Shown in pieces: positions 21,101-57,512 of a stretch of 64,000 nt of DNA. A model generated the notes under the pieces. It saw only the letters and a list, made by a program, of their open reading frames with translations, was not told the DNA's origin and searched no databases. Location of the stretch: positions 12,416,359 to 12,480,358 of the forward strand of contig OZ316893.1 in the NCBI GenBank assembly GCA_973895155.1, given 5' to 3'. This DNA is from Marsupella aquatica. Lineage: Eukaryota > Plantae > Marchantiophyta. The translations under genes and the position numbers were made by a program. How positions within the stretch are numbered: position 1 is the stretch's first letter; each line of letters starts with the position of its first letter.

Positions 21101-21229
21101 GGTTATCAATGGGGCTTCAGGATGCAAGGGGTGGCAAAAAAGTGGCAACAACTTAACAACTTTTTTACTTAACTTAACATGGTTTACTAGCAATATTTTC
21201 AGTTGTACTTAAGAACATCTTTTACTTCA

Positions 21230-22447
21230 CAACTTACATCTTTGTCTAACGACATCCTTTACTTATCGACCATTTTGTACTTAACAAAAAATACTTAATA
21301 ACATCTTTGGTGAAACATCATCTTTTACCTGACGACATCTTAGACATAAAGACATCTTTGGCCCATCGACATCTTTTTACTTCACTACATTTTTCACATA
21401 AGAACATTTTTTCTTCACGACACCTTTGGCAACACGACATCATAGTTCTTAATGACATCTTCTTACTTCACAACATCTTTCACATATTAACGACATCTTT
21501 GGCAACATGGCATCTTTTTTCTTAACGACGTCTTTGGCAACATGACATCTTTTTTCTTAACGAAATCTTTGGCAACACAACATATTTTTTCTTAACGAAA
21601 TCTTTGGCAACATGACACTTTTTTTGTTGACAATATCTTTGGCGAAACAACATATTTTTTCTTAACAACATCTTTTGTGCAACGCACGGGTATTGAGCTA
21701 TCTTTCACATATTAAGGACATATTGGGTGAAACAACGCCTTTTTACTTATAACATCATTTACTTCACAATAACTTAGTTTGGCAAAATGACAACTTTTTC
21801 TTAACGTCATCTTTCACATAATGACATCTTTTACATTTTGGGCAACACAAAATCTTTTGTGCAATGCACGAGTATTTTTCCTCAATGACGTCTTGGCCAA
21901 CACGACATCTGTTTTCTCAATGACGTCTTGGCCGACACAACATCTTTTTTCTTAGTGACGTCTTGCCCGACACAACATCTTTTCTCTCAACAACGTCTTG
22001 GCCAACATGACATATTTTTTCTCAACGACTTCTTTGCCAACACGACATCCTTTGTCTCAATGACTTCTTGGCCGATACGACGTCTTTTTTATCAATGAGA
22101 TCTTGGCCGACACGACATCGATTTTCTCAACGACCTCTTGGCCAATACAACATTTTTTCTCAACAATCTCTTGGTCGACACGACATCTTTTTTCTCAACC
22201 AATTCATGGCCGACATGACATCTTGGTCGACACGACATCTTTTGTTCTGAACGACCTCTTGGCCGACACGACATCATTTGTTATCACCGACATTTTGGCC
22301 GACATGACATGTTTTGTTCTCAACAACATCTTGGGCAACACGACATCTTTCTTCTCAACAACCTCTTGGCCGACATGATCACTTTTGTTCTCAATGACAT
22401 CTTGGCCGTGACGACATCTTTTGTGCAACGCACGGGTATATAGCTAG
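21230..22447 (+). mobile_element. Non-autonomous Helitron-like 3' portion containing a ~35-bp minisatellite
   Basis: Array of CTTGGCCGACACGACATCTTTTTTCTCAACGAC-like units, ending GTGCAACGCACGGGTATATAGCTAG|T (subterminal hairpin, then CTAG at 22444-22447 followed by T), the canonical plant Helitron 3' end. Confidence 0.7.
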
Positions 22448-24289
22448 TGATAAATAATAACACTGGTTTTCTTTCATCGTGCCTTAATGTTAGTCTCGGA
22501 AAGGCTAGGTCAAAAGTGTGCCCTTGTTTGTTATTAATGAAAGAAACATATTGCTCGGCCAGTTGTGATCTGGCCATCTACCCTGCCATATGGCCATCTC
22601 CCTTGTTGTTCTAGGGTCTAAAATTTCTCTGTCACCCTGGCTTTTTGCTATGGAGGAGGGGAGTTTTCCTTTTTCTTTGGGGTAAATTTGATTTTTCCTC
22701 ACTGTTTATTCTTTTTCTTTTAAATCATATTGGAGGAAGGGAGGGACCTGGGGAGGGAGGGAGAGCAGGAGGAGAGAAAAGGGAGGGTGCAGGACAGAGA
22801 AAAGAAAAGAAAAGAAGAAGAAAAGAAGAAGAAAAAAATGTTCTCCCTCCACATAGTGTAAGGCAACCACGCTTGATCGTGAGAACCCCCCTGCTGATAT
22901 CCCCTGTCTTGAGCCGCCCCCTCCCAATGACAACATGGTCGCAACATCAATTGTGCAACACACAGGCATTGGGCTATACAACATTATATCGGAGTAGTTT
23001 ATACAATATTATACATGGTCATGATCAAAAACTGTAATATATGATGTCGCCCACACAGGCCATGTTGTCTGTTTCAGGAAATAAGCAGGACTGCCAGTGA
23101 CTAAACTACACACTCATTCTTGACAACACTTTGCGAATGTCAACATAGCTGGGATGATGACATGGCCATAACAACACATAAGATGTCTCAGCCACTTCCT
23201 TACCTCACTTGCATTCTTTGCATTGCCTTGATATCTTCCGTGCAATGCTCACATTGGGTTAGTAAGTATATATTAATCTTAATTGAAACCTAGTTATACG
23301 GCCCACTATCTTGAGGGAAGCCTCTAGACTGGGGCATAAAGGTGCGCTGCAGGTCAAAAACAGGGATTGAGGGAAGTCATTGGAAAACCTATGAACGTGG
23401 ATGGTAAAGAATGTTTTTAAAATATAGACAGAACCATCCCTAACTTTTTAAATTTCTGTTGGAAGTAAGTTTTTAGTGTTACCTTCACATAGGTAGAGGG
23501 TGCTGTTGATAATTCTCTACCTTCCTCCCTAGCTAACCAGAGCCCATTCACCCATTGTACTATGTGCAAAGCACTAAACTTGACATTCAAGATTCACTAA
23601 GAGTTTGTAACTTGATTTCAATTTCTGGTTAACACAAACCCAGCTCCTGATTGTAATATGTATCACCCGGGGTATCACCTTACCTCATAAAGCTCATAAT
23701 GATCCCTATCCGATACTATTATCCTAGTCTGTTAATACTTTTTGCAAATTTTCCTTATTTGTGTGTTTGGTATGTCACTATTCATCCCCAGTTCTTTTCC
23801 TTCTTAGTTCATTAATCATCAAGCATTTAATATTCTTGAATAAAAGAAGATATGTATTTTTAAAATTTTTCCAACAAAACAAAACAAGAATAGAATCAGC
23901 CCACATTTGATATTCTTTGAATTCAATGAGACAAATATAATTTCTGAACCCCCATGGTGAGTTTTTCCAGAACTTCTTGGCACCAGGTGCAGCCACATCA
24001 TCACATTCGGCCACAAACAGGAACAATCATGTTTTCAGCAAGAAACAAACACAATTGTTCATGTTTATGCAAGGCAAGGAAAAACAGTTTGACCTAGTAA
24101 CAGTTAAAAAGATGAAAAAAACTGAATTCTAACTTTTAAACAACAAACAATGTGATAAAACAAAGTGTCTTGTCAATGATATGTTAGTGTACTAGATCAA
24201 AATGCTTGTATTTCTAATTGTTTGCAAAATTTTGAAAACACCAACAGATAAAAACCCCTTGGATTACACAATGTATAACAACATATATA

Positions 24290-25450
24290 TTCAATCTCCT
24301 TAGCACTTGACAATACGTGCCAATGTTAGGTTCATTCAAAATTAGCTAGAGAATTTCAGAACTTGTGATCTCCTTAGTACTTGACAAAATCTCCCAATGT
24401 CACATTCATTGGAAAATTTTACAAATTCATAAACTCACAATTTTGTTAAGACTTGACAAAATATGTCAATGTTAGGTCCACCAAAAGCTAGAGAAATTCA
24501 TGATAGTATTTGATAAAATCTCCCAATTTGGAAAGTTAGAGAATTTTTTTTAAAAAATGACCTCCTTAGCACTTGACAAAATTTGACATGAAATTTGTCA
24601 ATGTCAGACTCATTCAAAAGCTAGAGAAATTCATAACTCATGATCTTTGTAGTACTTGACAAAATCTCTCAATGTTGTTGGGAATGACACACTCATTGGA
24701 AAGCAACAAAAAATAATACTCCTCATCTCCTTATTAGTTGACAAAATCTACCAACTTGAGGCTCATTGGAGACCTAGAGAAATTAATAAACTAATGATCT
24801 CCTTGACAAAATTTGCCAATCTGAGATTCAATTAGAAACCTAGAGAAATTAAAATAATCATGATCTACTTAGTAAAATCTGTAAGTGATTTTCTAAAATG
24901 TTTCTAATTGTTCAAAGAAAAACATTTGATTGAGAGATGAGTGAGGAAATTGAAATCACATTTGCTGATGGCATAGCTAGACTTTACATGAAGAGTGGAG
25001 CTATTCAGAAATCCGTGAGCTCTTTAACACTTCATGAAATTTAACAATGTTAGGCTCATTGAGAAGCTCTTTCAAAACCTTTTCTAAGAATTCTCTAAGC
25101 ATGAAAAGTTTTAATAAGAAAGAAAAATTTGTAATCATTTTTGCTGACAACATTGCTAGACTTTCAAGAAATGAAGCATCATTAAACAATTTTTGACAAA
25201 ATTAGACAAAGTTAGGCTCACTTGAGATAGCTTTCCAAAACAATTCTAAGAATTATAAGCCCAAAATGTTTCATCAAGAGGTCAGGGAGAAGCATGAATT
25301 TTTGTTGGCACCATAGCTAGACCATGAAGGAAGAGCAGAGGAATTCCAAAATTTGTGATCTTCTTGATACTTGATGATATTCAATAATGCTAGGCTCATT
25401 GGAAAGCTCTTTCCAAAACATTCTAAGGGTTCTCAGCATATGAGAGATTT
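24290..25450. repeat. Degenerate ~70-bp repeat array
   Basis: Repeated TTGACAAAAT....CAATGTTAGGCTCATTGGAAAGCTAGAGAAATT units. Confidence 0.75.
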
Positions 25451-26457
25451 CATCCATAGACGAGGGAATCATTTGAATAGATTGAGGGCCATTTGAACTC
25501 AAACTTTCAAGTTAATTACTATAAAATGTTGAAAGGAATGAAGAGAAAGAAACTAGTGATGGCACTCCTGGAATGCTTGGCTTGGGTTCATAGTTAGATA
25601 GTAATTTGAAGGTGAGTACTAAGAGATAAAGAATCAAGCCCAACATGGAAAGTATCCAAGATTGAAATTGATCCATATGATCATGAAGGTCCAAGTGATT
25701 CAAAATTCCAGGGAAAAGAAGAATGATCAAGCAATAATATGGAAATAGAAATGGTTTCATCTCCCAGTTAATGTAAGGAGCTCATTCACATGGGCTTCAC
25801 CTTCCATGTTGCTCCATAATCCCACATGCTCTATTCACATGATTATAGTTGGTCAAGTAGGACTCCTACAACAGGGCACACAACTCTGATACAAACATTT
25901 AAGATATTTCTTGAGACTTATGTCCCTTGTTGAATTGTAGATTTCCTGTAGGGAGATGGGAGGGAGGATGGGGTCAGCTAACTTATTAAAAGTTCTAATA
26001 CAACAAATGAGTGATAGAATGGGCCAGTAGTGAGAGAGAATGGGCCAGCTATATCACTATGTTAATAGCGGAAAGGGCCAGCATGTGGCAAATCTAGTCA
26101 AATGCTAGGTTCAATAGGCAAAATGAAACACACAGTAGTACACATACAAAATAAATTAAGGCATGGAATCTTGTTCCTAACTTTCCTGGACTTCTTTGTA
26201 CCCTGCAATGCATTTATGGCATGTAGTTTTGAAAGATGTAATCTCCAAGGGTCAAATATCGCCACGGCTTTTTGCAATGGATCAATGTGCCAATATGGAG
26301 GTGACCTTCAATTAGCCCATTACCAAACAAACATTACCAAAGGTTTACTGACTTGTCCACAATCAAAAATCACAGTCCTCTTACAAACTGGAGTCCATGT
26401 TTAAATGTAGTTAAAACAAGCAAAAAGAAAGTTGTGAGAGGCATTGCTGATAGTTGC

Positions 26458-26608
26458 AAGTATTCACTTCATTGCAGTCATTTAGGTGCCTCCACTCAGC
26501 TTTACTTGTTTGTATTGCAACTTAATGATGATGAAGTATTCACTTCATTGCAGTCATTTGGGTGCCTCCACTCCGCTTTACTTGTTTGTATTGCAACTTA
26601 ATGATGAT
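26458..26608. repeat. 76-bp tandem duplication
   Basis: AAGTATTCACTTCATTGCAGTCATTT.GGTGCCTCCACTC.GCTTTACTTGTTTGTATTGCAACTTAATGATGAT occurs twice. Confidence 0.9.
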
Positions 26609-27286
26609 ACAATGCCAGAAATCCTAAGCATCCTATAAGAAAAGTTAGACACAAAATTGGAATTCTCCCCTCACAAGAGCCTTCAGACTGAAGGAAGAGA
26701 GACAGTACAAGAAACTCCTTTTGATTCACCCTTTGAAGGAAGGAAATAGGACTTCATATGCGCAGGGACAAAGTTAAATGAAGGATCTAGAAGAATATCA
26801 GCACCCAACAGGGACTAGGGGGGGAAAATACATGACAGGAAAACAATTGCGTTGAGACAAGGTGCATAATATGAATAGAAAGAAGATAAAAGACGAAGAT
26901 GGAAGAAATATACAGCCTTCCAGAAAGAGTTTTTAATAAGAACTGTCCAGATGTCACGAGCCCTTCCTGAAGTCCTGGGTGAATTGCAGGGTAGTCCAAA
27001 TCCATCCCTCTTGGAGGATGACAGACATTGGAGATGTTCAAAGAGTTTACTTCTTTACATTCTAGGCATCTATTTTTTCTTAACAATTTTCAACTAGATT
27101 ACAACTTGATATATACGTGTATCACTAATCTATTTTAGCTGCGCATAAGTTAGACCATCAATGACAAAACTCCATCTCATTTGACAGCGAATAAGCAGCG
27201 AATAAATGGGAAGGCATTTGGCCAATATAGGTGTTTTAGTGGCCACAAGGCAATCACCACAAGAACATACCCTGAATGAAGAGACT

Positions 27287-29774
27287 TCACAGATATGTCA
27301 TGACCTTAATCTTCGGTACAAGAACTCGTAAAAATCCATCTCTGTGAATAACAAGATCGCTTTCAGTCAGTGAGACGGCCTTTTGAGCTTGTATTGCACC
27401 AGATTACTTTTGAGTAAGAGAAACCATATATCACAGAATCAAATTCAATACAGAGCTGCATATAAATGGATAAAGACGTTACATGAATTCTGCAGTGATG
27501 CCGTTGATATAACCATTCTTTGGGAGGCGCCACACAGCCCTGTATGGACCTTGAGCCAACTCACGGCGATGATAGACTGTACCATTGCCATTATTGTTTG
27601 CTTTCCACCAATCAGTTGCTCTACTCCCTGTGACAATCAAGCTGCACATGGCCACGAGCGTGCTTGACAACAATGGACACTGACAGAGGGACTGAGGCAA
27701 TCTTTAAAACCATTTTACAAGAATCGAGTGCAGGAAGAGCTATCCGATCCCCTGGGTGGGCTGGCTCACAAGAGAAGTGCAGTAGGAGCTTTTCCAAGAG
27801 GTCTGAATTCAAGTTAAAAAGATGGAAGTGAATGTACGTAAGAGACCTGCACGTCACCGTATTATCACAGAGAAATTTAAAATGAAAAAAGTCAAAACAT
27901 CCGCGTACCTGCCCCGTACAACTTCCACATGAATGCCATCAGCACTCACACCTGGCAACTCAACTGTGATGACATAGGCTGTGCCGGACTCGACTACGTC
28001 CATGCGAGGAAACCATTCAAACCCTACCACACAAGCCAGTTTCATATCAGCACTCCTCAGTCTTACTGAAAAACTGCTCTGGTATCGGATGAAGGTATCC
28101 AAATGATCTGGTCAAGAAACCGTTCAAGGAACAACAACAGATTCAGACCGAGATTTTCAATTGGCCATACTTCTAGGACACACCATATTGCCAAATATTT
28201 GGTTAGGAATTTGTTTGCTGAGTATAGGCATTTTCCACTGTTGCTTCCAAAGCCTTCCATGTTTGTGGAAATGTTCCTTGCTTACAAGAATCAACCCGCA
28301 GGAAACCCATTCGTGCAATGACTGCAGAATGAGTGAAACAAAGATTGTCAAATTTTAAATATTGTTACCTATAGCTTCTCCCAATGAATTCCTCGCATTC
28401 TCTGTAAAAAATCCCTCAGCCACAGTTACAGCTTAGTATTTCTAGTCGCTTGCCCCCCTTGGGGCTTGTAAATTTGATTCTATTCCATTCTATCCAGTTC
28501 AGTTGAGTGAGTTCTTTTCAATCGCATGTAATAGAATTCTTCCAGTGGAGACATAAAATCATAATTCCCTCAACCAACGTATGCTGCAAATATAAGAGAC
28601 AGTTCTTACCAAAAGAGTCAAAGCGCGTTTGATCTTTGGCAGTTGGTGTTGGTGAAACTTCCTCTTTTCGATCTGCTGCAGGAGGTTGAGCAGATTCTGT
28701 TCCTTCACTGTTCCTGCTCCCTCGCGAATTTGACTCACGCTCTTGATATGGTGCTGGCATTTCAGGTTCTGGATTCTGAGCAGGAACACTAGTCACCAGA
28801 TTTTCAATCGGATCAGTCTGAAGCGCAGGTCTCGCAAACAAAGGCTCGATTGTTGCAAAACTGGGTCCCGGAGCATGATCTGAAGCTCCTTTTATATTTC
28901 TATCCACAGAGGGGCTCCCACATTTACCGATACCATCAGGTCTCAGCCCTGATGCAGTAGTTTTGAGACCAGCATCCACCTCGGCTTCACCACGTCGAAC
29001 ATCCTGCATTCCAGAAAAGTGGGGGTCAGCAGACAGTCCTGTCAAGACCCATCGGTCTGCCTTTCTAACAATCTCTGTCGAAACCAACTTTCGTTGCAAA
29101 AGACAATTCACATCTACACAATTAACTGATGGCTTGGCCATCCGAGTCACTTCACCTGCTTCAGTGACGCTTGCCGCATGAATTGTCCGTGGCTGTCACT
29201 GGATTGCCGAGCGAAAAGTGTCCGATTGTCTCTTCTTTGAAAACCGTCCCAACCTCCTCCAGCATTACATGCCTGGAACAGACAAAGCAGGCATGAATAT
29301 CACCTGGCTTACTTACTGAAAAGAACAAGGTAAGAAAGCAACTTTATCAAGGTCATCACGGTCCTACGACTCTAATGCCCCCCTACTCTGGCCTGGTTTG
29401 TAGTTCAGTTGCTGAAACCCCCAACGCAATTTCCCCAAGAAGAAAAGAAAACGTGCGTGTAAAGCCCGCGGAATGAGGGTGCCCTCTATCTACACGATGG
29501 CCCAACCAATAGACGCGAAAACTCTTCGGGCTACGCTAGTTCTCCACTCAGGCAGCGATATGTCGAATTAGGGTTGATCGAGGACACGGTTTCGGAAATT
29601 GATGTTAAGAGAGGAAGAACATGACAAACTCACCAGTGCAGAGAGTGAACGTGAGGAGGGTGCGTCACGAGGGGCGAGCCGCCATTTGTGGTCCTCCAGC
29701 TGCTGAATTATCGGTCCCACATGACAAGCCAGATGATACAAACGCCTCCTCGCCCGATTGTTGGCCTCCTCCAT
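27287..29774 (-). CDS. Alpha-crystallin-domain (HSP20-like) protein, homologue of peroxisomal Arabidopsis ACD31.2/ACD32.1; multi-exon
   Basis: N-terminus MEEANNRARRRLYHLACHV..SLSCSSSLN (PTS2-like RLx5H). ACD exons EWFPRMDVVESGTAYVITVELPGV, LIVTGSR..YHRRELAQGPYRAVWRLPKN..AEF, and last exon 27287-27341 DGFLRVLVPKIKVMTYL*. Confidence 0.85.
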
Positions 29775-29983
29775 TCGAATCCGACCAAATGCACGACCTA
29801 GTTTCACCAATTCCGACCAAATCTACCACTCCAATTTGGCAGCTCTCGTACGCAACAGTAGCTGTCTGGACAACTGCAGCAAAGGGCAAATTTCGTAACG
29901 CAGGGAGAAGAACAACCAGCCGTGCCGTGCCGGGCGGCGAAGAACTGATTCCCAAGAGCTAGACTCGCAAATCAACTCGAATC

Positions 29984-30035
29984 CAATTCAATCCAATCCA
30001 ATTCAATTCAATTCAATTCAATTCAATTCAATTCA
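29984..30035. repeat. (AATTC)n microsatellite upstream of the ACD gene
   Basis: caattcaatccaatccaattcaattcaattcaattcaattcaattcaattca. Confidence 0.9.
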
Positions 30036-30394
30036 CTCAACCAGGCATCTACGCTAGCAAACGGATCGATGGAAGCGGGAAGAGGACACAGGAGAGGACA
30101 CAGCAAGCGGTATCGCACAGCAAAGCCAAGATCACAATTCTCTGCGATGGTGTGTGAGTGGGCAACGCATGAATCATCCAGAGTTTTCCATTCAGGACTA
30201 GTACATACATGCGATTTTGTTGCTAGATCATTTTGCTGTGCTGACTCTCCAATCCACACTGCATTGTCGGTCTAATAGTGCAGGTCGGGCTGGTGCTGGG
30301 CTTCATCGTCGAGAATAAGGTGGCCCGCATTCTAAGGATTAGGTTCCATCGTGACCATCCCCTGCCCTCGCACCTGGTAGTGTGTCACAATCGT

Positions 30395-31530
30395 GCTCTT
30401 CGCGATTTTTCTCTTTGCCATGGTTTTTCTTTGCAATTTCGAGGGCATTTATGGAAACGGATGCTGAATGCTCTTCGCGATTCTTCTCGTTGCCCATTTT
30501 TCTTCTTTGTATTTTTGTGCGCATTTGTGTAAAGTGTGATTTACTACATTGCCACCATTTTTTTTATCCTTCTATTTATGAAATTGGCACTATTTTTGTC
30601 CGTGGGTAAAAAACAAACAAACCCAGTTTAGCTCCTCGGCATCTAACGGTCATCTGTGTTCCCCCTGTCAAGATTTGATGGCGTCGGATTTCCTCACTCT
30701 ATTCGATTTCCTCACTCTATTCTTTGACCACGCCCAGGTCAACTGGCCCAAAAGGGGGGTCGCCTGCCCGCACTGCTCCCCTTCTCGGCCTTGCCCTACA
30801 GCCCGATGCAGTCGTCATGACCCACCTTTGGGCCAACTGACCCGAGGGTGCTCAAAGACGAGACTGAGTGAATCTGACACCATCAGATCTTGGCAGGGGG
30901 AACACAGACAACGGTTGCTTGCTGAGGAGATAACCTGGGTTACTTTTCTTGACCCACAGACAAAAATTAGTGGCAATTTAATAAAAAAATTGGTGGCAAT
31001 GTATGTATTATGCAACAAAAAGATATCAATGTAATACATCTGAGTTTAGGGAAAGGAATGCTTAATGCTCTGCACTATTTTTTTTTGCACCATTTGTCTC
31101 TTTGTAATTTGGAGGGCATTTGTGGAGAGATGTTCTTCTCTATTTTCTCCTTGCCATTTTTCTCTTTGTGATTTTGAGAGCATATATGGAAACCAGTGCT
31201 TAATGCTCTTTGCCATTTCTCTTTGTAATTTTGTGCGCATTTATGGAAAAGAATGCTTAAGGCTCTTTGCTATTTTCTCTTTGCAGTTGGGAGGGCATTT
31301 ATGGAGAACAATACTTGATGCTCTTGACTATTTTTCTCTTTGCCATTTTTCTCTTTGTAATTTTGAGAGCATTTATGGAAAAGAATACTTGATGCTCTTT
31401 GCAATTGTCCTCTTTGCCATTTGTCTCTTTGTAATTTGAGGGCAGACATGGTAAATAATGCTTAATACTCTGCCATTTATCTCTTTACCAAGTTTTCTTT
31501 GTGATTTTGACTGCATTTATGGAGAAGAAT
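30395..31530. repeat. Degenerate ~60-bp repeat array interrupted by a foldback element
   Basis: Units CTCTTTGCCATTTTTCTCTTTGTAATTTTGAGAGCATTTATGGAAAAGAATGCTTAATG at 30395-30530 and 31050-31530. Confidence 0.8.
30545..31003. mobile_element. MITE/foldback element with ~200-bp imperfect inverted arms
   Basis: TACATTGCCACCA pairs with TGGTGGCAATGTA; TCTGTGTTCCCCCTGTCAAGATTTGATGGCGTC with GACACCATCAGATCTTGGCAGGGGGAACACAGA; GGTCAACTGGCCCAAAAGG with CCTTTGGGCCAACTGACC. Confidence 0.85.
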
Positions 31531-32468
31531 GATGAAGGGCCAAGATTTAGATGGCTCATTCTGGAATTTCTCTTGTACTTTCTGTTTTTCCAAGCGGCAC
31601 CCCCAACTTCAGTTATGCCCTAGAGTCATGGTTAGAGGTTTCGCCCCGGATCATAGACCCTTAATAGTAGCTTTCAATCAGACTCACCCTGCCCCCATTC
31701 TCCATTTTCCACACACACCCCCAACTTAAGTTACACCCCAAGAGTCACAATGTGGAGGCTTTGGAGTACTTGAAGAGTAGCTTTTGACAACAATTACAGA
31801 GTTAGATTAACATCTTGTCACCTGAGCCTTATGGACAACTTAGCACTCAAAACTTGAGCTAAAGCCTATAAGCACTACTGCCCTCAATGCCAGTGAACAA
31901 AATGTCACTATATACAAAATTATTGACAAATGCTGCACCTTCTGCAATTTATTCTCTTTTAGATTCATGATTTGTAAAGTTGAATATCCACTATGTTAGG
32001 AATTGACTCTATGTTCTTAACTCTAGTGAGTTTTGTCTCACTAGGGTCAGTTAACTCTTGATTAATTAGGAATAAAGTCCACTTATTTAGGCTCACACAT
32101 CTTGGCCCCCTTGGGGGGTATAGGTGGGAGGAAGAATATTTTCTTCCTCATTCTTCACATGTGTATTATCTCATGTTATGGATTGTTCAAAAGTTCTTCC
32201 ATCATGGTGTCTTGACTCTCATATTCCGTTTATGTGTTGTTTAATCTGGACCCGTCCAATTTCTTGCACAACATATATACAATTACCTCTCTCCAAGTGC
32301 ACAACCTATAAGTGCAAACATGGATAAGTACATGTCGTGCGCATACACATCGCTACACAACATACATCGCTTGTCACATACATCCAAACATAGTCACACT
32401 GCCACATCACAAACACAAGAGAATGGAATACAAGTGGAACTCATGTCCACACATGTCCAAAACCCACA

Positions 32469-32480
32469 ATCGCCCCCCTA
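32469..32480 (-). other. Putative polypurine tract preceding the 3' LTR
   Basis: Minus strand TAGGGGGGCGAT followed directly by TGTGGG..., ~170 bp after the pol stop. Confidence 0.55.
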
Positions 32481-32643
32481 GCTGGGAGTAAGGTCCCCTA
32501 ACTCTAGCTAGCCATGAGTTCTACAAGGTTGATATACACCTTTTTAGGTGTGAAGATCAGGAGGCCAAGTGCAAGTGGGCCCCATCGATCACCTACCTGC
32601 AATCCATATCTGCCAAGAGAACACAAATGATAACTAGTCGGTT

Positions 32644-32790
32644 TCACCGACACTGAGGACACAACCATGATCCACTAGGAATCACCTACAATGGTGGTGT
32701 CAAACATGACATGTGCCATCCTCTAGAACACTTATCACAAATTAATATAGTAGCTGCTCCCTGAGAAGATCCACACAACATACATTTCAA
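32644..32790 (-). other. PHD finger at the integrase C-terminus
   Basis: CMLC-GSSQGAATILI-CDKC-SRGW-H-MS-C-LTPPL*VIPSGSW-L-CPQC matches Cys4-His-Cys3 with the conserved Trp. Confidence 0.9.
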
Positions 32791-35700
32791 GCCAGCACGA
32801 ACATGTGCCAAGCTTGGATCTACTGTACCATCAATGTTGGGAAGGTGACATGGTGCATAGTTGCGCACATGATCCTTCCAAACCATACCATCGCGTCCCT
32901 CCAACATCAGGACACCAGAAGGCAACACTTCACGCACACGTAAGATTGTCCGGCCTGCGGTCACATCAAGTGTCGTGGGTACTGTCTGCTGCAAATAAAC
33001 ATAATCACCAGGATGAAATCGTCGAATGCTTGCACGATAACCTCCTCCACGAATAGTGGCATACCTCAAAGTATCATGATGTTGGGCAATGGCAAGGTTG
33101 TCAAAAGCCATGGGCATCACTCTCTGAAATACCCGTGCTCTCTCTGAACACACCTTGACCCAAACATCAGGATCATCCAAGTTCACAACTGGTGTAGCAT
33201 CACGACGAATAGCTGCTGGCAAATCTGGCTCTCTACCATAGAGCAAAAAGTAAGGTGAAAAAGATGCAAGTGATGCTTGCCGACTGAAACGGTAGCCCAT
33301 AGCTAACCAAGGTAGCTGGAGATCCCAATCTCCCAGATGACCAACCTGCAAGCCATACTTACGCAATCCTCTCTTCACAGTTTGCACAACTCTCTCAGGT
33401 AATCCATCTGCCTCAGGATGATCACGAGAGGTAGTACGATGATCAATCAGAGCTTGTTCACACAAACTCTCAAACTCTCCACGGAACTCAGTTCCCTGAT
33501 CAATCAACACCTCAACTGGTGCTCCAAAATGACTGAGTACACGATCCAAAAATGTAGCAGCAACTCCTCCACTGGCTTTATCTGGCAACACCACTAGCTC
33601 AATCCACTTGGAGAAGTGCTCCACCATGACCAAAACATACCAATTATGACATTGGGTAAGAGGTAATGGACCAGCAAAATCCAAACTCCAACGATATCCC
33701 AAACCCATGATCGGCAACGGGTGCAACTGGGGAGTGGGAGCATTAAATGATGCTCTCACTCTATCACATACCACACACTTAGCTATCAATTGCTGGACAT
33801 GAGTGTGCATACCACGCCACCAATACTGTATCTGCAGCAAGCTATAAGTGCGCTTCACACCAAAGTGACCCAACTCCTCATGTGCATGTCGCACCAAATG
33901 TACTCGTTGTGATGGTTTTGGTACCACCAACACCCTACCATCATGCAGTACTCTTAAAAGATGGTTTCCCTCCTATCGAAACCTCTTGGCTCTCTGTAGA
34001 ACCCTGTCACATTCTTTGGCATCAACACTGCCAACAATAGAACCACTGCGCAGATATTCCAACACTCTCACATCATTGTGAATATCTTGTTGTCCAAAAG
34101 TTACCTCACCAACATCCACATCTGAAGACTCATCATCCACTCCATCCAATGAGGTAGAGTCCACAGATCCACTGTATGCTGGCACCCAACAAAAAAAGGC
34201 AGATGCATGCCATCCTGACACCATCTCCTTATCTGACTCATCATGCCATCTGGCTCCAGTCTCATCCTGCTGACTGGTACATGGATTGCGGCTTAATCCA
34301 TCTGCATTCAAGTTCACTTTTCCAGGCCTACGCACCACCTGGAAATCATACTCCTGTAACAACAATGCCCATCGTGCAAGCTTCCCTGTAAGCTTGTCAG
34401 ACTCCATTAACCACTTAAGAGGCTGATGATCAGTGATCAAGGTGAAGGGGTTACCAAAAAAGTAGCAACGAAAGTGTGCAACAACCCACACTGCTGCCAA
34501 ACACTCTCCCTCATAAGAGCTATACTTAGCCTCTGTTGAATTGTTTGATCTACTGGCATAAGCCACAACAAACTCATTCCCCTCATCATCCTTCTGAGTC
34601 AGCACTGCTCCAAGTCCTACTCCACTCCAATCAGTGTGTAACTGAAATGGTCTGCCTGAAATGGGTCTTCTCAAAATAGGGGATGATGCCAACCTTTGCT
34701 TCAACTCCTGAAAGGCATGCTCCTGGTCATCACCCCAAATCCATTCTTGATCCAACTTAGTGAGTATGGTCAAAGGTTTAGCAAGCTGGCTAAATCCTTT
34801 AACATACCTCCTGTAGTAGCTCGCCAATCCCAAGAATGCACAAACTCTACTCACATCAGTAGGGCAAGGAATCTGGGTAATGGCCTCCACTTTAGTCTGC
34901 TGTACACCCAATCTCCCTAGGTGTATAGTGTGGCCCAAATACTCAATTTGGTCTTGAAAGAACTTACACTTGCTAGGATGGAGCTTCAACCCATGTGCTC
35001 TCAATCTCTCCAACACAATCTGCAAGTGCTGTTAATGTTCTTCCACAGTAGAAGAGTAGACCAAAATATCATCAATATAACATCTGACAAAATCCAAACC
35101 TGCAAGGATTCGATCCATGACTCTCTGGAACTCAACTGGTGCATTCTTCAACCTAAATGGTAAGAATAACCACTGATACAAACGATCTTTGCCATAAGAA
35201 TCAATCCCCCAGAATGTTGTCTTGGACCTGTCAGCATGCCTAATTGGAAGCTGATGGTACCCTGCCCTCAGATCCAATGAACTTAAAACCTTTGCATGCC
35301 CCACAGCATCAAAGATTTCCTCAGGTGTGGGCATGGCATATCTATCAGATTTTGTCTGGCGATTAATGGGTCTGTAATCACCACACATGCGCCTATCTGT
35401 GTAATTGCCATGCACATCCTTCTTGGCTGGCATCACTGTGGCACATGCATACTCCCCATATGAAATCTCCACCAATCTAGCCTCCAACAAATCTTGAGTT
35501 CTACTTTGAATCAGAGCTCTCTCCATGTCACTATAACAGTATGGCCTATGAAAGATTGGCGCATCACTAGCCAATTCAATCTGAATACCAGGACCCTTTA
35601 ATGTCCCCAAATTCTTCATGCTAAATGCAAAACAATTCCAGTAACTCTTCAGGAATCGATGCATGCGACGTCTCTCCTCCCCTGTCAACTTAGGGCCAAG

Positions 35701-35979
35701 CTGTGGTTCCCAACTCTCCACCAAATCCCTAATATCTCTTTGTAGGGTAGAAGAGATAGCCAATGATTGCTATTTAGCAGTAGATTGAGCAGTCCCTTCC
35801 TGCTCAACAATCTGTCCAGCCTTGGCCAATCCTGCCATAGGTCCATGGACTATCTGCTCGACCCCAGCTGTGGTCAGTACTGTCTCAGTGGACCGCAAGC
35901 TCACCAAGGGACAATCAGTAATTCCAGTAGAGCGCATCCGCAACTGTTCAGCTACTCCCAAGCTGATAATCCAAGTCAA

Positions 35980-36910
35980 ACAATTCAGGTCCATTGCTTG
36001 ACCAAGAACCTGGCGCCGCAACCCCTCTGACACAGAGGCAACTGCAGTGGTGCTAGTCAAAAATCCTATAGCACGCTCTCTCTCATCAGCAGTAGGTTCC
36101 ACTAATTGTTGGAGAGCTGTGTCCCACACAAGTCCAGGGCCACCTGCTCTGAATGCATATGAAGTAGAGCGGCTTACAAGAGTGGGTAATGCACAACGTG
36201 GGCGCCCAACTACATTGACCATTGCCAATGGAGGTCTATCAGGTTGGGCCACACCCTGTGCACGATGCCCTGGATCCAAAATATCATCCACCACTAAGGC
36301 GGGTGAGCGTGGAATGCTGTCAAATGCACGCTTCAGCACCTCACATGGGATCAAATTAGTCCACCACAAGCGTGGACGATGTGCACAAGAACCCACACGT
36401 GCAGCATCCAATAACACAGCAGGTCCAATCCAAGACCTCACTTGGTGAAAACTAGCAACAATCCGACTATGATCATCACCGAACAATGGCACATTCTCCA
36501 AAATGTATGTTGGAGACTGTGTCTGATGTAACTGGAGATGATGCAGCACCCGTAACATCTCCCAAAACAATGCAGAGCGTGGATCATAAAGTCCATGCCC
36601 AACGCCAGCTCTAGATTGGCCCTGACATGGCCAACCAGCAATCACCAAATCAATGGGGCCAACATGATGCAGATGATCCGCCCCCAACAATAAAATATCA
36701 GCAGGTAGTGCATGCTGATAACCACGAACAACATCCACTGGTAGCAACTGTGGATATCTATCCACCAACATAGTCACATGTCGCAATGAGACCCTCCATG
36801 CTGTCTCATCTGTCTCCACATACAAATAACGACGAACAAGAATTCCTGCCTGAAGAACAGCAGCCAATCCAGTGCTAATCCCACCAAAAAGATCCAACAA
36901 AAAAATACCC
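35980..36910 (-). other. C5 cytosine methyltransferase domain (DNMT3-like) within pol
   Basis: Motif I LLDLFGGI (~36880-36900), II YVETD, IV IDLVIAGWPCQ (~36625), VI ILENV (~36495), VIII AHRPRLWWTNL (~36370), IX ERERAIGF, X RRQVLGQAM (~36000). Confidence 0.92.
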
Positions 36911-39150
36911 TCCGGTGGATATTGCCAAGCAATAGGAGTGGTATCCAATGGTGAAAGAGTCACAGGTCCATCTGCAAGAGACTGCTCTGCTCCTGACTGT
37001 GGTGTAAAAGCATGACGCCATGCATCATGTACCAATCGTGCTGTTGCCTGTGACAAGGCCTGTGCACTGCCCCACACTGGTGGCACAACACTGCCAACAG
37101 GTAATCCTCGCATGATGTGCTCCTCATGAGACTCCTCCAATGGTGGAACATCTGCTGCATGCACATTACCCTCAAGCAAATCATCAGGTCCAGCAATTAC
37201 ACCACTGAATGCTACCAAAGACAATGGTGTGGATTTAGGGCCTCCCCAAGGTCCACTAAATCTCACTGGCAATTTGCTCAATCGAGCATCTCCTGACTGC
37301 CAATCAGGTCTATATGACACTGATTCCTCCCAAAAATCAAGAATAAATCCCATGGGGTAGAGCACTGTACATCCTACCAACACATCATATGACTCTGCCT
37401 TAGTCAGAATAGCTCGCGCCTGTATATGTGAGCTATCTGTGGTATGACCTTCCTGAATCCTCAAATCAAGAGGTCTCCTGGTAATGTGCTGTGTAGGTGT
37501 AGGTCCCCCCAATGAAGTCTGAATGGGAAAGGGACAATCCTCCAAATCCTCTGGACGCAATCCCAATCCACGTATGACAGACTTTCCCAACATCAAGGGT
37601 TGAGCACCAGTATCAAGTAACACCCTCTCTGGCTGGTACACTGCTCCAGAAGGCCCAACTAATCGAAAGATATCACTCCGATTATCCAATGATACAACAT
37701 TAGGTTTAAACCTAGTCCTCTCAAATGCAGGGCGTGCTGGTAAATCCACCAATCTTGCTGCTGTTGCATGCCATGTCTCACTAGTAGTAGTAGGTGGCAT
37801 GGTCTTCACTGCTTCAAGACTGCAAGTTGCTTCTGCATGGGAAGCAACCACTGGAGTGTGCTCACAGAGTGTAGCTGCCAATCTGAACACTTCTGCAGGA
37901 CCAACTCCCAAGTTCAGCATGTCTGTCGCTGAAAATAATGGGGTGCGTACCATGGCAGTAGCCGCCCCTAGCAGGGTACCTGTCATCCCTACTGCATCAC
38001 TACCTGATTCTGCCAACTTACCCACGCCAGGGTTTGTTCGAATCGGGTTCATAGAGGCAGTCTGAACTGTCTCTGACAATGTAAAAGACTGAGGAAGCTT
38101 TGTCTGTCGACGTGCATCCCCCCTCTGTGGATCTAACTCCACTACTGCTCCTCGGGGCTCAAGAGCTTTGGCTGCCCCACGTGTCAAAGCTGCTGATGCA
38201 TCAATATGTGCAGTGCCACACATGAATCCCATGGGGGCAAGGTCTCCATCAGCTCCATAAGATGTGGAAGGACCATGGGATGTGGAAGGTCCATAGGATG
38301 TAGATGCCCCATCACCAGAATTAGGTCTCACCTGGGAACTAGCCATGGCAACTAGTTGTTGCTCCAATTGAGCAATCTTAGCATCCTTTGGATCTATGGT
38401 TACAGCAGGGGCAGCGTCACCTCCTTGTCTCCCTGCATGTGGCATGCCACGACCACGTCCATTACCTCTACCTCCTCCTCCTCCTCTTCCCTGATCATGT
38501 GTACGGGATCCTCCTCTCCGTAACTCAGGGTGGAGTGAGAAACACCTATCTTTGGTGTGTCCAGGAGCTCCACAGTGATCACACTGTTGCTGATCAGGCG
38601 CTAATGCTCCCCCTGATCCTCTATGATCTGGGCAATATCTCTGTGCATGATCCCCACCACAGGTCCAACATCCTGACTGCTGTCCAGCATAAGAGGGCAC
38701 AGGTCTCTGGCTAGTAGACTCTCGTGCAGTAGGCTTCTCCCTCTGGCTCTTTCGTGCAGTAGGCTGTGGTGTGGATGTAGATGCAGCCTTTGGTGCTTCC
38801 TTGGCAAATCCGGAAGTCACCACCTTCTCATTCACCATATTGAGCTCAATGCGCTCAAAAAGGGTAAAAACAACTGCTAATGTGGGATCTGCATCCCTAA
38901 GCAGAGTGACATCTCTCACTCTGCGTCGCAATTCTCTATCCAGAATTGCATACCAAAACTGGACTGCCTGAGCCTATGTCACTCCCTTGGTGACAGTGAT
39001 CAATCTGCGCATACGAGTGTATGCCTCACGTAGACTCTCTCTAGTCTTGCGCTGGAACTCCTGGAGACCCTTCAACTTATCAATTCTCACACCTTGATAG
39101 TTCTGCTTTAGTACCTCAAAGAATTCCACCACAGGGTTAAATGCTGGCAA

Positions 39151-40218
39151 GATCTAAGGGCGGCCAAGAAAGCCCAAGATGAACTGCGGATTAAGCGGCA
39201 TGAACTGAACATCATGCAGGGGCAGTTGGACACAGCGTAGGCTGATAATCAGATTATCAAGGATAAATTGACTCAGACCCAGGGAGAATTGGCCGACGCA
39301 ATCAAGGACAGGGAGAAATGGAAGAAGGAGCTGAGAAACGCAGATGAGGCCCATATAGCAGTCAACAACCGGGTCACGGCGGAGACTCAGAGAAGGGAGA
39401 GGGCGTTGAAGGGGGAGCTCGAGAAAATCCACGGAGTCCTTGAGCAGAAGGAGGCCGAGTTAGGGAAATCCTATCAAGGGATTATTGCGCTACAGCAGGA
39501 GCTTGCGTCCCTGACGGCCAGCTTTAAGGCCGACCTGCGGGAGAAGGACGCCCAGCTCAACCAGACTTATGCCAAGATGAATAACATGGAGTCTGAGGTC
39601 GTAGCGGAGCTCGACAAGGAGCTAAGAGCAACCCGGGAGGAGAGGGCTACCACCAAGAAGGAATTGGAGGAAGCCCACAGGGAATTGGAGGAAGCCAAAA
39701 ACGAGCTGGAGAAGGCACGTAAGGACCTGGATGAGACCCAGGAGGAGTTGGAGGAAATCACAAGGAAGATGGAGAACCTACAGCGGCGGGCCGACAACCA
39801 AACTGAGCGGCTGAAGAAACAAGCCGCCGTATTTAAATGCTTAGCTGCATCAGGTCCATCTCCCGTTGGGGCAAACCAGTTACCAGGGGTGGTAATTACC
39901 GAAGGACCAGCCGTGACACACGGCCCGGTGCCAAACATTGGCGGCAAAGGGAAGGAACAGGCTGTGGAGATAGTGAAGAAGAAGAAGCGGAAACCTTCGG
40001 GGTCCAAAGGTTATTCGACCCCTCAAGCCGTACTCAAACCAGCGCCAACCTCTGGCATGAACACGACAATAGATTCCGCTATCACCAAAGGTGGGGATGG
40101 CGCGGTCCAAGCCGAACTACTCAGTAATGAGGCCGGTATCCCAGATCCACCTCTTGAGCAGGCTGGGGAGACAGTGGCTGAAGCCGAGGCTGAGGCCGTA
40201 GCCGAGAATGATTCCTGA
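39151..40218 (+). pseudogene. 5'-truncated coiled-coil ORF, antisense within the second retroelement
   Basis: E/K/L-rich heptads (ELEEAHRELEEAKNELEKARKDL) and a KKKKRK patch. The frame continues upstream of 39268, through one TAG, to the junction at ~39150. Confidence 0.6.
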
Positions 40219-41259: not shown

Positions 41260-44250
41260 TTAGGGAGCCATGGGACGCACCACATCCGCTGACCAGGGAA
41301 TGATAATAGTGGGGATTCCAAACCGAAACTGCCGTTTGCCCCAATCACTTGTGACCTTGGCCACATACAACCATGGCCTGCCAATTAAGATGGGAAAACC
41401 GTAGGGCCGAACGGGTCGCATTACCAAATAGTTGAGGGGAAAAGATTTTCCCCCAATCATTGTTGGAATCTTGGTGAGACACCCCAGCGGCACCACCCGT
41501 GCCCCATCAGCCAGCCTCATGGCACGTGCCGGTGGTTCTAACTCCGTATACCCCAACCGGTTTGCTGTCTCCTCAGTCATAATGTTGACTCCCGAACCCC
41601 CATCAACCGGTACAAACCGTATCGCACATCCGTTGATGTCCACCGTGAGTTCTGGGGCACCCAAATCCTCCGTGACCCAGTTGACTTGTATGGGGTCAGC
41701 CCCAACTTTGGGTAACCTTCTTCTACGTCTCCTCCTCATAAGAATCTCCTTGACTTGGCGGCGGTAGAGGGAGCTATCACGTAGCAATTGCCCAATTGTG
41801 GCACTGACTGGACAATCTAGAATATCTTGAGCAATGTTGTACGCAGTTGCAGGAGGTATGGGTGGGATGACCTCCTCTCCTGGTTTCCAACGAACAACCT
41901 TCTCCTCCGCTTTCTTTCTGGCCTTTGCCTCCTCTAGGTCTTTGTCAATGGCCGCTTGCATGGCTTGTGCTTCTAGCTCCTCCAGCTGCTTGCGTACCTC
42001 TTCTCCCACCTTTGGGTAGAACAACTTGGGGTTATCCCGATCAAAGTCGCTATCTTCCATGGGTGGCACCTCCGGTTCGTGTGAGGTGCCCGATGTGGAA
42101 GCTTGATGCACCTCCTTGTACTTCTACTTGAGTTCAGACTTGTCCTTCTTTTTCCCAGACCGAGTGGAGACCCGGTAACAAGAGTAGTGTCTCCTCTCAT
42201 CATCACTGTCCACCTCCGGCAAATTTTCAGCGTGAGTCCACTCATGACTTGGGGACCGTGTGTGCTCAACAACTTCTGAAGTGACAACGACCACCAAAGG
42301 TGCCTCCACAACTGGAGATACTACAACGATTGATGGTACTAACTCCTCCTTGATGGTGACCAGCCTCTGCTTGGGAACGTCAACTACGGGCTCTTCCCGT
42401 TTTGTGACCAACTCCTTTGCAAGGGTGAACTCAAGCGGGTCAACCGCTTCCGTGGCAAGAAAGTTGACGTTAGCTTCTTTGAGCGGGGGTGGTGGTCCCT
42501 TCTTCTCCGGTCCTCCAGCTTGTTGAGCCTTGATTGCTTCCAAGGTTGGACAGTGTGGTGCAAGATGACCCTCCCCCTTGCACAATTGACACAACCGGGC
42601 AAAATCTCCGTTCCCTTGACGTGTGGGCTCCGGGCACACGTTAGTGTAGTGGCCAGCTACTCTACAATTGTAACAGATAGGGATCTTTCTTACTCCCGGA
42701 TACGGTGGCCTATTCCCGGAAGTAGCGTTGGAATAGTTGGCATATGGGGGTGCTCCAGCGTTAGTCGAGATCCCATGAATGCTCCTTGGTCCCGGGTTGA
42801 GCGGCTGCACACTATACACATTTGCCTCCGGTGGCTCCTCCATGAAGTACTCGATTGGCCCCTCCGTTGCGTAGGAAGAGGTTGAGTAGCTAGCTCCTTC
42901 TACGTCCTCCTCCCGTACTTGGAAGACCTTGGCTGGTTCTCCCGCTGGACACTCCTTCGGGGCATGACCAAACTTCATGCACTTGGTGCACCACACGTTG
43001 GCTCTCTCTACTGGAACCTTTCTCCTCTCTGGCTTGAGACCTGCAAAGTGCACCTTCAACGCTTTCATTTGCTCTGTCAACTCATCATACCTGGCCTCTT
43101 GCTCCTTGAGACGTCTTGCCGTAGACAATGGGGTAACGGCCACCGTGGGTAGCACAACTTCTCGATGAGTCAACTTCTTGGCCTTCTTGGACAACTTCTT
43201 CTTCCTCTTCTTTCGCTTCTCAGCTTCTGACTCCGTAGTGTCTGACTCCGTAGTGCTCTCAGAGTCCTCGGATTCATCACTACCATCTGACTCGGATTCA
43301 CTTGATTCCTCACTAGTGGAACTGTTCACAGGCTTCAACTTCTTTCTTCGGCAGCGCTTGCTCGTGGCATCGGCGGCAGTGTATGACTCCGCTGCTGCAA
43401 TAGCCTCAGCCAATGTGGTTGGCTTGGCCTGTCATACAAAGAACCCCATCTTGCTTGGTAGGGCAGCTACAAACCACGCTTGTCGCATAGCATCATCGGT
43501 ACGGGCTTGTATCCGCCGTACCAACTTCTGGAATCTTTGCAAGAACCTCCGTAGCGACTCTTTCTTCTTCATCCTAAGTTGACCCACCTTCAACAGGGAT
43601 GTGGCTTCCACTCCAATAGATCGGAACTCCTTCAAGAATGCTTGCTTGAACAAAGCCCAATCAACCTTCACGTTGGGTAGCAACGAGATGAACCATGGCC
43701 CTGCCTCCCCCCTCATCATTCCGGGAATGATAGTTAGCTTGTGGGCAGATTCTCCATTGGCTTCAGCGATCCCTTCAAATTCTTCGATCCATTCGTCTGG
43801 GTCATCTTTTGGTCTTCCCTTGAAGGGTACGTACTGAACACGGGTACGTTGTGCAGCTGCCATCGGTGCAGCTGGCCCCCGTATCAACACCGGCGGTAAT
43901 GGCGTACGTTGGGCCACCGGTAACAGCAATGCTGATAGGTGTGAGATGATTTGTGGCAATGCAGTGAGCTCTGGGATCAGATTTGGCCGTAACTCAGACT
44001 GTACCAACACAAAGGGCTCCCCTTCTTCTAGCATGTGATCTACGTCTGGCTCTTCGTCTGGACGTATGGCCTCGTTGTGTTGAGACCCTTCTTGCGGCAC
44101 ACCAAATTGTTCTTCTAGCTCTCGTGGCAACCTCCTCTCTTCTGCGAGCCGTAATTGTTCTTCAGCAGCAACCCAAGAGGACACTCGGTCTAGCTCAGGC
44201 GTACGTGAGTGTTGGGGGCTTGCTCTCCCTCCCCTTCTTCCTCTCGGCAT
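41260..44250 (-). pseudogene. Gag-aspartic protease ORF with two in-frame stops
   Basis: Retrotransposon gag (PFKGRPKDDPDEWIEEF..W..FKQAFLKEF..ESLRRFLQRF), three CCHC knuckles, protease VDGGSGVNIM..ILIGRPWL. ORFs 43432-44250, 42124-43413 and 41260-42111 share one frame. Confidence 0.85.
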
Positions 44251-44466
44251 CCCATTGAGACCTGCATGCCAAGCTCACGCAAAAATATCACCAACAAATC
44301 TTCCTCAAACATCAACCATCGCAAGTTGCATTGTGGTTGACATACAATCACAGAGTAACCAAGAAAAACTTCTCAAGTATCAACCGTCGCAAGTTGCGTT
44401 GTGGTTGATACGCTTGAACTCCAAATAGACGTAGCTCCCCTCCTCCTGCAACCAAACAAGGAGAAG

Positions 44467-56746: not shown

Positions 56747-57512
56747 CTCGAAAATCCAATTCAATTTCAAGCTACGGAGAAATTCCGATTCGACCTCAAA
56801 TCCTCTGCGGCTCTTCCGATCTCGTCACTCTTCGTGCGACGATCACTCTACTCTCCCATCCTCCGCCTGCTCCTCACGAAAGAATTGAGAGTACCATCCA
56901 ATTCTCTTTCTCCTCCTCCCTAAAATCGACCCATTCCGCTCAAAAACTTGCGGAAAAACTCCAGAACCAGGAGACAACTGAAGTCCCTTTTCTCCCTCCT
57001 TGTCAATGTGCTTCTACTCTACTGAACTTTGCTCCTCTCCTCTCTTCTCCTCGGTTTCCTCGTTCCTCCTCATCATCTTCTCTGCTCTTCTCGTCTCCTC
57101 GTTTTCTCTGTTTTCTTCTCCGTTCCAAACCTCAGTGCTTTGAATTGCAACTCTAGGGTTCCTGACTTCCTGACAAATCTAATCCCACACTGTCGATATT
57201 AAATACTCGATTCTTCTTAAATACGTTCGAACGTTCCTTCTTCCACTAAACAAATCAATCCTGGCCATTCAAAGAAATCCGTGAGGTGAGAAGCTCCCTC
57301 AGATCACGATCCCCGCGATCGCGTAAATGATTAGTTAACGGGTGACCATGGTTGAACTGCTTACTTACTTAAGTGTAACTGCAGTAGTGCTGTCGCCGTC
57401 AGCCTCCGTCTACCAGTGAGCTTCGCTCTCTCCTGAGCAACGACCGGCTATCACCGGTTGAGAATGTTCTTGCCTGTCCAGCTGCAAGTGACTTGTGAGA
57501 ATGACCGGTCAT

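Follow-up and report, generated by a model that had tools for sequence, protein, structure and literature searches.

A decayed liverwort Ty3/gypsy element of an old green-lineage family carrying a DNMT3-like methyltransferase and an integrase-borne PHD finger

The window analysed here is a 64,000-nucleotide stretch of the genome of the liverwort Marsupella aquatica (GenBank assembly GCA_973895155.1, contig OZ316893.1, positions 12,416,359 to 12,480,358 of the forward strand), and coordinates count from its first letter. On its minus strand, a single frame (39153–32644) translates into gag with two CCHC knuckles, protease (PR), a C5 cytosine DNA methyltransferase (DNMT), reverse transcriptase (RT), RNase H (RH), integrase (IN) and a Cys4-His-Cys3 PHD finger, with five internal stop codons (38976, 35772, 35034, 33975 and 32688) before a terminal TGA (32646–32644). 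The element is a dead, decayed copy of an old Ty3/gypsy family of the green lineage (green algae, mosses and liverworts). An original prediction, made from the letters of this DNA, had seen a chromatin reader (the PHD) and a methylation writer (the DNMT) in one retroelement, and the ends of the stretch it singled out agree with the stop of the PHD (32644) and the start of the DNMT (36909). The features of the locus are as follows.

32333–39153, minus strand: Ty3/gypsy-type retrotransposon remnant, 5′ end missing, 3′ end at a B repeat (frame translation, repeat match).
38518–39153, minus strand: Gag remnant, its pair of CCHC zinc knuckles running from 38670 and from 38583, with a private stop at 38976–38974 (24/24 aligned relatives open there).
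37258–37722, minus strand: aspartic protease, DTG motif at 37617–37603 (weak Pfam match, E 0.007).
35959–36909, minus strand: DNMT3-like C5 cytosine methyltransferase; motifs I, IV (PC, 36633–36622), VI (ENV, 36498–36487) and VIII intact (Pfam PF00145, PDB matches).
35764–35772, minus strand: conserved in-frame TAG followed by CAA TCA (UAG-CAR-YYA), between Gag-PR-DNMT and RT-RH-IN-PHD (junction comparison).
34924–35631, minus strand: reverse transcriptase, YIDD at 35079–35068, stop at 35034–35032 (Pfam; 54/59 aligned relatives sense at the stop).
34249–34641, minus strand: RNase H (Pfam).
32992–33945, minus strand: integrase with HHCC, D-D-E core and GPY/F-like motif (33018–32992); private stop just upstream at 33975–33973 (Pfam; 80/80 relatives sense at the stop).
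32644–32787, minus strand: C-terminal Cys4-His-Cys3 PHD finger, private TAG at 32688–32686, terminal TGA at 32646–32644 (Pfam, PDB matches, family alignment).
32557–32600, minus strand: conserved non-coding element on the 3′ side that forms a hairpin in most relatives (motif in 44/64 loci, window included).
32470–32479, minus strand: polypurine-tract-like run immediately preceding the B repeat (shared by L011, L012 and L054).
32333–32469, minus strand: terminal B repeat; relatives end in A...B-A-B or A...B (72% match to positions 37–113 of the L011 B repeat).

In stop-to-stop open reading frames (ORFs), Pfam recognizes DNA_methylase (E 3.4e-9), rve, Integrase_H2C2, RVT_1 and RT_RNaseH, all above cut-off, and it recognizes the PHD (E 9.5e-6) from the 32 residues that precede the TAG alone. 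The whole finger, with an X at the break, matches 98 PDB sequences at E ≤ 0.01, while no chromodomain was found in the ORFs of the window or in 23 family proteins scanned; the PHD follows the GPY/F-like motif instead. The integrase does therefore end in a Cys4-His-Cys3 PHD in place of a chromodomain, as predicted, and an artefact or a chance motif as the origin of the PHD and DNMT observation was rejected. Related DNA comprised 86 loci, six from one search and the best 80 of 427 from another (L numbers denote loci, P numbers proteins); many of them are near-duplicates, and this redundancy applies to all locus counts. At the TAG inside the PHD, every one of the 69 related loci that align reads a sense codon, so that this TAG is decay of the window copy, the finger continues in frame beyond it as had been proposed, and a programmed stop at this position was rejected. 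The stops at 38976 and 33975, sense in 24/24 and 80/80 aligned loci, are by the same comparison private decay as well, and the stop at 35034, where 54 of 59 aligned relatives are sense, is likewise decay. The 5′ end of the element, the gag N-terminus and the A repeat were looked for in the 64-kb window and not found, and unrelated sequence begins at 39154, directly beyond the truncated gag. The copy has an observed-to-expected CG ratio of 0.31, against 0.93 in the N-myristoyltransferase (NMT) gene of the window, a depletion that fits long methylation, by host and by self alike.

Domain order (Gag-PR-RT-RH-IN), an RVT_1 reverse transcriptase and an HHCC/DDE integrase place the element in Ty3/gypsy; chromovirus membership was rejected by domain content, as there is no chromodomain at the integrase C-terminus. 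Relatives have inverted 7-base termini on the integrase-bearing element, TG...CA ends and a short target duplication, which is 4 bp long and exact in five of seven relatives, with one mismatch in the other two; the window copy keeps its 3′ end only. The terminal repeats of the family are split in the manner A...B-A-B, with A of ~339 nt and B of ~113 nt (L011:1679–2017 and 10238–10805; L015). The arrangement is complete in L011 and L015, 13 other loci have B-A-B at their 3′ end, a B repeat survives in the window, and many family copies stop after the first B. The inner joint of B and A looks like a circle junction.

A search with the DNMT region returned 61 proteins, with Marchantia polymorpha at the top (58–69% identical) and Sphagnum, Scenedesmus and many metagenome proteins among the rest, and an integrase search returned 146, the 120 listed including Coleochaete, Klebsormidium, Calypogeia and Tetrabaena. 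The clade spans liverworts, Sphagnum, Coleochaete and chlorophytes; two scans of viral contigs gave no relatives. Three Pol proteins of Klebsormidium nitens (P0160, P0165 and P0173) are relatives of the integrase, P0160 being RT-RH-IN-PHD, and no DNMT-bearing K. nitens protein occurs among the listed matches of the DNMT and integrase searches. Six loci of this eukaryotic retrotransposon (L001–L006) sit in bacterial genome bins and are most likely misbinned plant or algal contigs, and one family protein carries a cyanobacterial name in public sets.

Profiles distinguish two layouts: type A, to which the window belongs, consists of Gag-PR-DNMT followed by RT-RH-IN-PHD, and type B, to which the named chlorophyte proteins belong, of RT-RH-DNMT-IN-PHD-tail. 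DNMT and PHD lie together in a single open frame in 87 relatives (8 with the DNMT before RT, 79 with the DNMT just before integrase), at a spacing of 434–1290 residues and always with integrase between them. Many relatives, mostly of the algal type, extend beyond the PHD with a small beta-barrel and with a fold that resembles class I S-adenosylmethionine (SAM)-dependent methyltransferases. Seventy-two such tails have at least 150 aa (e.g. L006:8464–9516, P0023, P0025, P0028, P0059, P0084, P0123 and P0141); the tail model has a pLDDT of 83, a best Foldseek E of 6e-5 at low TM, and P0025 has a weak MethyltransfD12 match (E 0.0035).

Co-occurrence of PHD and DNMT across related gypsy families, which the original prediction had offered as a check, was examined from both sides. 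With a query restricted to the integrase core, which cannot select for PHD, the best 150 of 771 matches at E ≤ 1e-30 were taken; 25 were too short to judge, and 123 of the 125 evaluable relatives have the PHD. Representatives of this set comprise 34 type B, 3 fused type A, 2 DNMT-less from protease to PHD and 7 that were not judgeable, which puts the DNMT in 37/39 where it could be judged. From the other side, 32 of 35 DNMT-query matches that include an integrase carry the PHD. Of the three exceptions, one is a cut gene model, one a protein that stops immediately ahead of the finger and one a copia element, so no DNMT-bearing lineage without PHD was clearly seen among these 35.

Among PDB sequences the DNMT of the window is closest to DNMT3A (E 8.5e-15), then to DNMT3C and DNMT3B, with bacterial enzymes and DRM2 far weaker (DRM2 E 0.13). 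Its PC, ENV and RxR motifs occur in order and unrearranged, without an intron and with catalytic residues kept, in agreement with Gypsy-Dnmt3 enzymes. Between the near-intact loci L001, L042 and L045, the proportion of non-synonymous differences (pN) in the DNMT is 0.13–0.18 against 0.64–0.77 for synonymous ones (pS), and the corresponding rate ratio (dN/dS), where computable, is 0.07–0.11; for the PHD, pN is 0.065–0.089 and pS 0.64–0.83. By these measures the DNMT is under purifying selection, and so is the PHD, which is nearly fixed in the clade. Glu replaces Pro before the catalytic Cys in 31/109 family DNMT domains. Trees of DNMT and Pol are congruent (Mantel r 0.80, highest permuted value 0.29, 67 shared tips). 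Together, co-occurrence, tree agreement and purifying selection on both domains argue that DNMT and PHD/Pol have long travelled together and that their pairing is ancient and genuine.

The Pol tree was rooted on L055, a neighbour element of unassigned family, the intended outgroup L035 having fallen within the family; because a true outgroup is lacking, neither the root nor the order of DNMT gain or relocation is established. The DNMT tree was rooted on one copia-borne DNMT and gives type-B monophyly a support of 0.78. In a Tetraselmis-labelled copia-type protein (P0062, RVT_2), a related DNMT precedes the protease and integrase. Elements that retain the PHD and have no DNMT (L003, L004, L005, P0113, P0428 and P0448) nest within DNMT-bearing clades of the Pol tree. 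In L004 the frame runs open all the way from protease through PHD, and between L003 and L004 the PHD has a pN of 0.045 and a pS of 0.52. Conservation of the PHD in DNMT-less elements means that it serves a purpose independent of the DNMT, of which integration targeting is the simplest candidate. L085 and L086 also lack the DNMT, but both are decayed and probably represent one copy in two assemblies, so they are weak evidence, for which post-insertion deletion is a possible cause. DNMT matches in L082 and L083 lie downstream on the other strand and were taken to belong to another element.

The finger had been assigned to the AIRE/BHC80/CHD4 type, which reads histone H3 unmethylated at lysine 4 (H3K4me0). 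Parsing by pattern succeeded for 135 of 143 PHD-bearing proteins, and the other eight were dropped. The loop between Cys2 and Cys3 has 11 residues in 113/135 parsed fingers; that of AIRE, BHC80 and CHD4 has about eight. We take the Trp of a methyl-lysine cage to stand two residues before the zinc-binding His and the Asp of AIRE and BHC80 to stand just before Cys1. Two positions before the His, the family has Gly in 120/135 and Trp in 0/135, and an acidic residue occurs in the two positions before Cys1 in 8/135 and is absent from the window. To read methyl-lysine, a PHD requires a cage in which a Trp is conserved, and AIRE and BHC80 rely on an Asp (D297 and D489) (PMC3214078), so the finger fits neither K4me3 readers nor the AIRE/BHC80 pocket, and the structural choice that had been posed, aromatic cage versus acidic pocket, comes out as neither. 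An Asp follows Cys3 in 126/135 and Cys4 in 14/135 (Ser in the window), Pro-x-Gly precedes the late Trp in 97/135, and algal and land-plant members alike conserve the pocket positions. In the ATXR5 PHD, backbone carbonyls hold K4, two Asp hold R2, and Pro and Gly hold A1, and K4 methylation is discriminated (PMC5499861); the mapping of its R2 and A1 residues onto the family was inferred from spacing. A model of the L001 finger (pLDDT 76) superposes on the PHDs of ATXR5, BAZ2A/B, UHRF1, DPF2/3 and BHC80 at 0.7–1.4 A over ~47 residues, and sequence matches include KDM5-PHD1 alongside the ATXR5/6, BAZ2A/B, UHRF1 and DPF fingers. From this likeness in sequence and modelled fold, we predict that the PHD is a reader of the unmodified H3 N-terminus of the ATXR5/BAZ2/UHRF1 type; the unmodified-H3 class of the original assignment is supported, its AIRE-type pocket and loop are not.

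Between DNMT and RT the window has the TAG at 35772–35770 followed by CAA TCA, the UAG-CAR-YYA context that is the type-I readthrough context of tobacco mosaic virus (TMV) and works in plant cells (PMC3542737, PMC2754532). Forty-seven RT junctions, the window included, could be examined among the 86 loci. A stop followed by CAR-YY lies 100–200 nt before RT in 35/47, against 10/1500 background windows, and among the junctions with a DNMT upstream in 30/32, in all 30 of which it is in frame, 132–165 nt before RT. The strict CARYYA is present in 10 of the 35 motif junctions (window, L001, L042, L045, L056 and L078 among them). Spacings of 44, 47, 51, 52 and 55 codons recur, and the families compared are near-saturated at synonymous sites. 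In L001 and L045 this stop is the sole one in ~2,170 codons, and in the window, L001, L042, L045 and L056 no ATG occurs within 20 codons past it, CAR-YY being kept while amino acids change. Among Gag-PR-DNMT proteins, 18/19 end 82–481 residues past the DNMT and one is cut at the DNMT; the four closest RT-IN-PHD proteins have 1033–1083 aa, against 1041 codons after the window stop. By these sequence signs the conserved TAG is likely leaky, a probable site of readthrough. The conserved stop makes the DNMT a Gag-side product in the branch of the window and the PHD a product beyond the stop; the original wording of two Pol products suits the 87 relatives with one open frame and not this branch. 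It is also because of the stop that gene callers annotate the family as two unlinked proteins. Downstream, 60–170 nt past the Pol stop, a hairpin-forming non-coding element (window 32557–32600) is kept in 44/64 loci, in families with near-saturated synonymous sites; long-range pairing between this 3′ hairpin and the readthrough site was inspected by eye only, and was unconvincing.

We give an even chance to a reading in which the two domains have separate roles, the PHD steering integration and an abundant DNMT methylating complementary DNA (cDNA). Readthrough would yield Gag-PR-DNMT as the major and RT-IN-PHD as the minor product; the particle would package DNMT in amounts comparable to Gag, and this enzyme would methylate the new cDNA, as has been proposed for DNMT retrotransposons (PMC5890265); and the PHD would tether integrase to unmodified H3 tails, so that insertion would disfavour promoters with methylated H3K4. 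Fresh copies would then arrive already methylated in K4-unmethylated chromatin, an end state equal to that of ADD-DNMT3, reached via two uncoupled steps.

Several observations speak against parts of this reading. As to the stop, 25 of the 35 motif junctions, from one family (L011), have C or T at +6, near-duplication reduces the loci to about five independent spacings, and the 87 relatives with both domains in one open frame lack such a stop. The agreement of the DNMT and Pol trees means long joint travel of both domains. As to the finger, Met occupies the position three before Cys3 in 106/135 parsed PHDs, a position that lines the pocket of K4me3 readers. The second R2-binding Asp is mostly missing and the window PHD has a net charge of +2 against a family median of −3, so H3 binding is perhaps weak in land-plant members. 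The UHRF1 PHD, moreover, loses only 3-fold affinity on K4me3, so a finger of its class may be nearly blind to K4 methylation (PMC3214078), and the K. nitens DNMT was inactive in yeast, a result its authors call inconclusive (PMC5890265).

These points about the finger lend themselves to a second explanation, in which the PHD provides the integrase with a general module for binding nucleosomes or proteins, contacting A1 and R2 of H3 regardless of K4 or serving intasome assembly, and targets no chromatin state. The rarity of the AIRE/BHC80-type acidic residue and of the second R2 Asp agrees with it, as do the near-neutral charge of short-tailed land-plant-type PHDs and the place of the weakly selective UHRF1 finger among the closest folds. 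ATXR5, however, discriminates K4 methylation without the Asp (PMC5499861), the pocket is conserved from algal to land-plant members, and an intergenic bias is on record for a PHD-bearing Gypsy element, though selection could explain that too (PMC9940879). We regard this explanation as doubtful.

Somewhat less probable still is the coupled reader-writer of the original prediction, in which the PHD recruits the DNMT to chromatin with H3K4me0, within an unprocessed polyprotein or pre-integration complex, and the insertion site or host chromatin is methylated as by ADD-DNMT3. Co-occurrence and the congruent trees are what it would lead one to expect, no DNMT lineage is clearly without PHD, and in the 79 relatives with the DNMT directly before integrase-PHD a DNMT-IN-PHD product is possible, which keeps it alive above all for type B. 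ADD-DNMT3, however, works by intramolecular contact of ADD with the catalytic domain (PMC10393158), and the host reader-writers ATXR5 and DNMT3 ADD each act in one chain by direct contact. Here the domains are never adjacent, being at least 434 residues apart with integrase always between, the conserved stop places them in different ORFs in the branch of the window, the DNMT occupies two positions, the PHD is a canonical finger and not an ADD, and it persists under selection where the DNMT is lost. The analogy is weak for these reasons, and the suggestion that ADD-DNMT3 logic had been rebuilt is not supported. That the conserved stop is simply the true end of ORF1, with RT-IN-PHD made from a separate transcript or by re-initiation and DNMT and PHD still in different products, is improbable: the largest family among the loci does have an in-frame ATG two codons past the stop and lacks the +6 A, and bypass of a gag stop was in question in Tca2, but the frame is always preserved, and CAR-YY is kept where no nearby ATG follows.

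REM1 is a PHD-bearing Gypsy element of Chlamydomonas. There is precedent in the literature for each piece of the element: the PHD of Gypsy-7a, KnitGypsy-Dnmt3 and the chromodomain EpiLTRs. Gypsy-7a_cRei of Chlamydomonas is likewise a green-algal Gypsy element with a PHD in its polyprotein, for which a role in curbing harmful insertions has been proposed, and it inserts in intergenic regions 2.6 times above chance; unlike the present family it has no DNMT among its listed domains (PMC9940879). PHDs in Gypsy polyproteins are also on record more generally (PMC6673714; bioRxiv 2021.11.30.470311). In KnitGypsy-Dnmt3, the Gypsy element of K. nitens described by de Mendoza et al. (2018), Dnmt3 lies in the Pol ORF and the repeats are DIRS-like (PMC5890265). 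This element shares with that of the window Ty3/gypsy enzymes, an intronless Dnmt3-related DNMT under purifying selection and a streptophyte host, and its DIRS-like repeats resemble A...B-A-B, a match to Fig. 4c of that paper made from the legend only. As the split A...B-A-B ends of the relatives are flanked by 4-bp duplications, we consider the window element to be of the same kind. The paper reports K. nitens only, whereas the clade here reaches liverworts, Sphagnum, Coleochaete and chlorophytes, and the DNMT there is in the Pol ORF, whereas it has two positions here, with a readthrough-type stop behind it in the branch of the window. The word PHD is absent from the main text of PMC5890265 and its searched supplements, although Fig. 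4c may draw one, and P0160 of K. nitens has a PHD. EpiLTRs (bioRxiv 10.64898/2026.05.21.726589) also join a chromatin reader to a cytosine methyltransferase in an LTR (long terminal repeat) retrotransposon, but their reader is a chromodomain, their DNMT is sister to DNMT4, they carry DAM too, and their authors set them apart from streptophyte Gypsy-DNMT3. A methyltransferase-like tail, as modelled for many relatives here, would make a three-tool element like EpiLTRs. The stop shares with TMV the hexanucleotide after an in-frame UAG (PMC3542737, PMC2754532), but it follows protease and DNMT and does not mark a gag/pro border, and C stands at +6 in one family. In a literature search that had subscription journals, theses and Repbase outside its range, no paper was found on a DNMT3 and PHD Gypsy clade, its land-plant or chlorophyte presence, or the readthrough site.

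Around the element, a second retroelement remnant (gag knuckle and protease, 41260–44274, minus strand) and a coiled-coil ORF (39241–40218, plus strand) start where its gag is cut, which suggests a nested insertion at the truncated end. The NMT ORF (55367–56824, minus strand) is uninterrupted, not CpG-depleted and 90% identical to a Calypogeia fissa protein, in keeping with a host among the leafy liverworts; an Atlas search with this gene returned no lineage. Downstream of the element are degenerate tandem arrays (35-nt and ~60–75-nt units) and a 460-nt imperfect inverted repeat (21247–22424, 24344–25420, 30394–31536 and 30545–31003), and six X-read frames of window positions 17500–32330 contain no Pfam family.

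Why retrotransposons keep DNMTs has been left open (PMC5890265), and this clade provides natural controls, as the DNMT stands before RT, before integrase or is lost while the PHD is kept throughout. The stop predicts much DNMT and little integrase-PHD, an uncommon ratio, which separates methylation of the element's own cDNA from methylation of the target site, and the close relatives in Marchantia polymorpha, a model liverwort, make insertion sites comparable with histone marks. A wider proposal, possible though on the unlikely side, is that this is an ancient, unnamed algal and bryophyte Ty3 clade with an epigenetic programme of its own: DNMT3 would be overproduced before a leaky stop, packaged and used to methylate cDNA, and the PHD would deliver the pre-methylated copy to H3K4me0 chromatin, while algal members, with the DNMT beside integrase-PHD and a second SAM-dependent methyltransferase-like domain after it, would be true targeted reader-writers that could seed de novo methylation of the host. 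A reader of unmodified H3 fused to integrase would add to chromodomains a second means of targeting heterochromatin.

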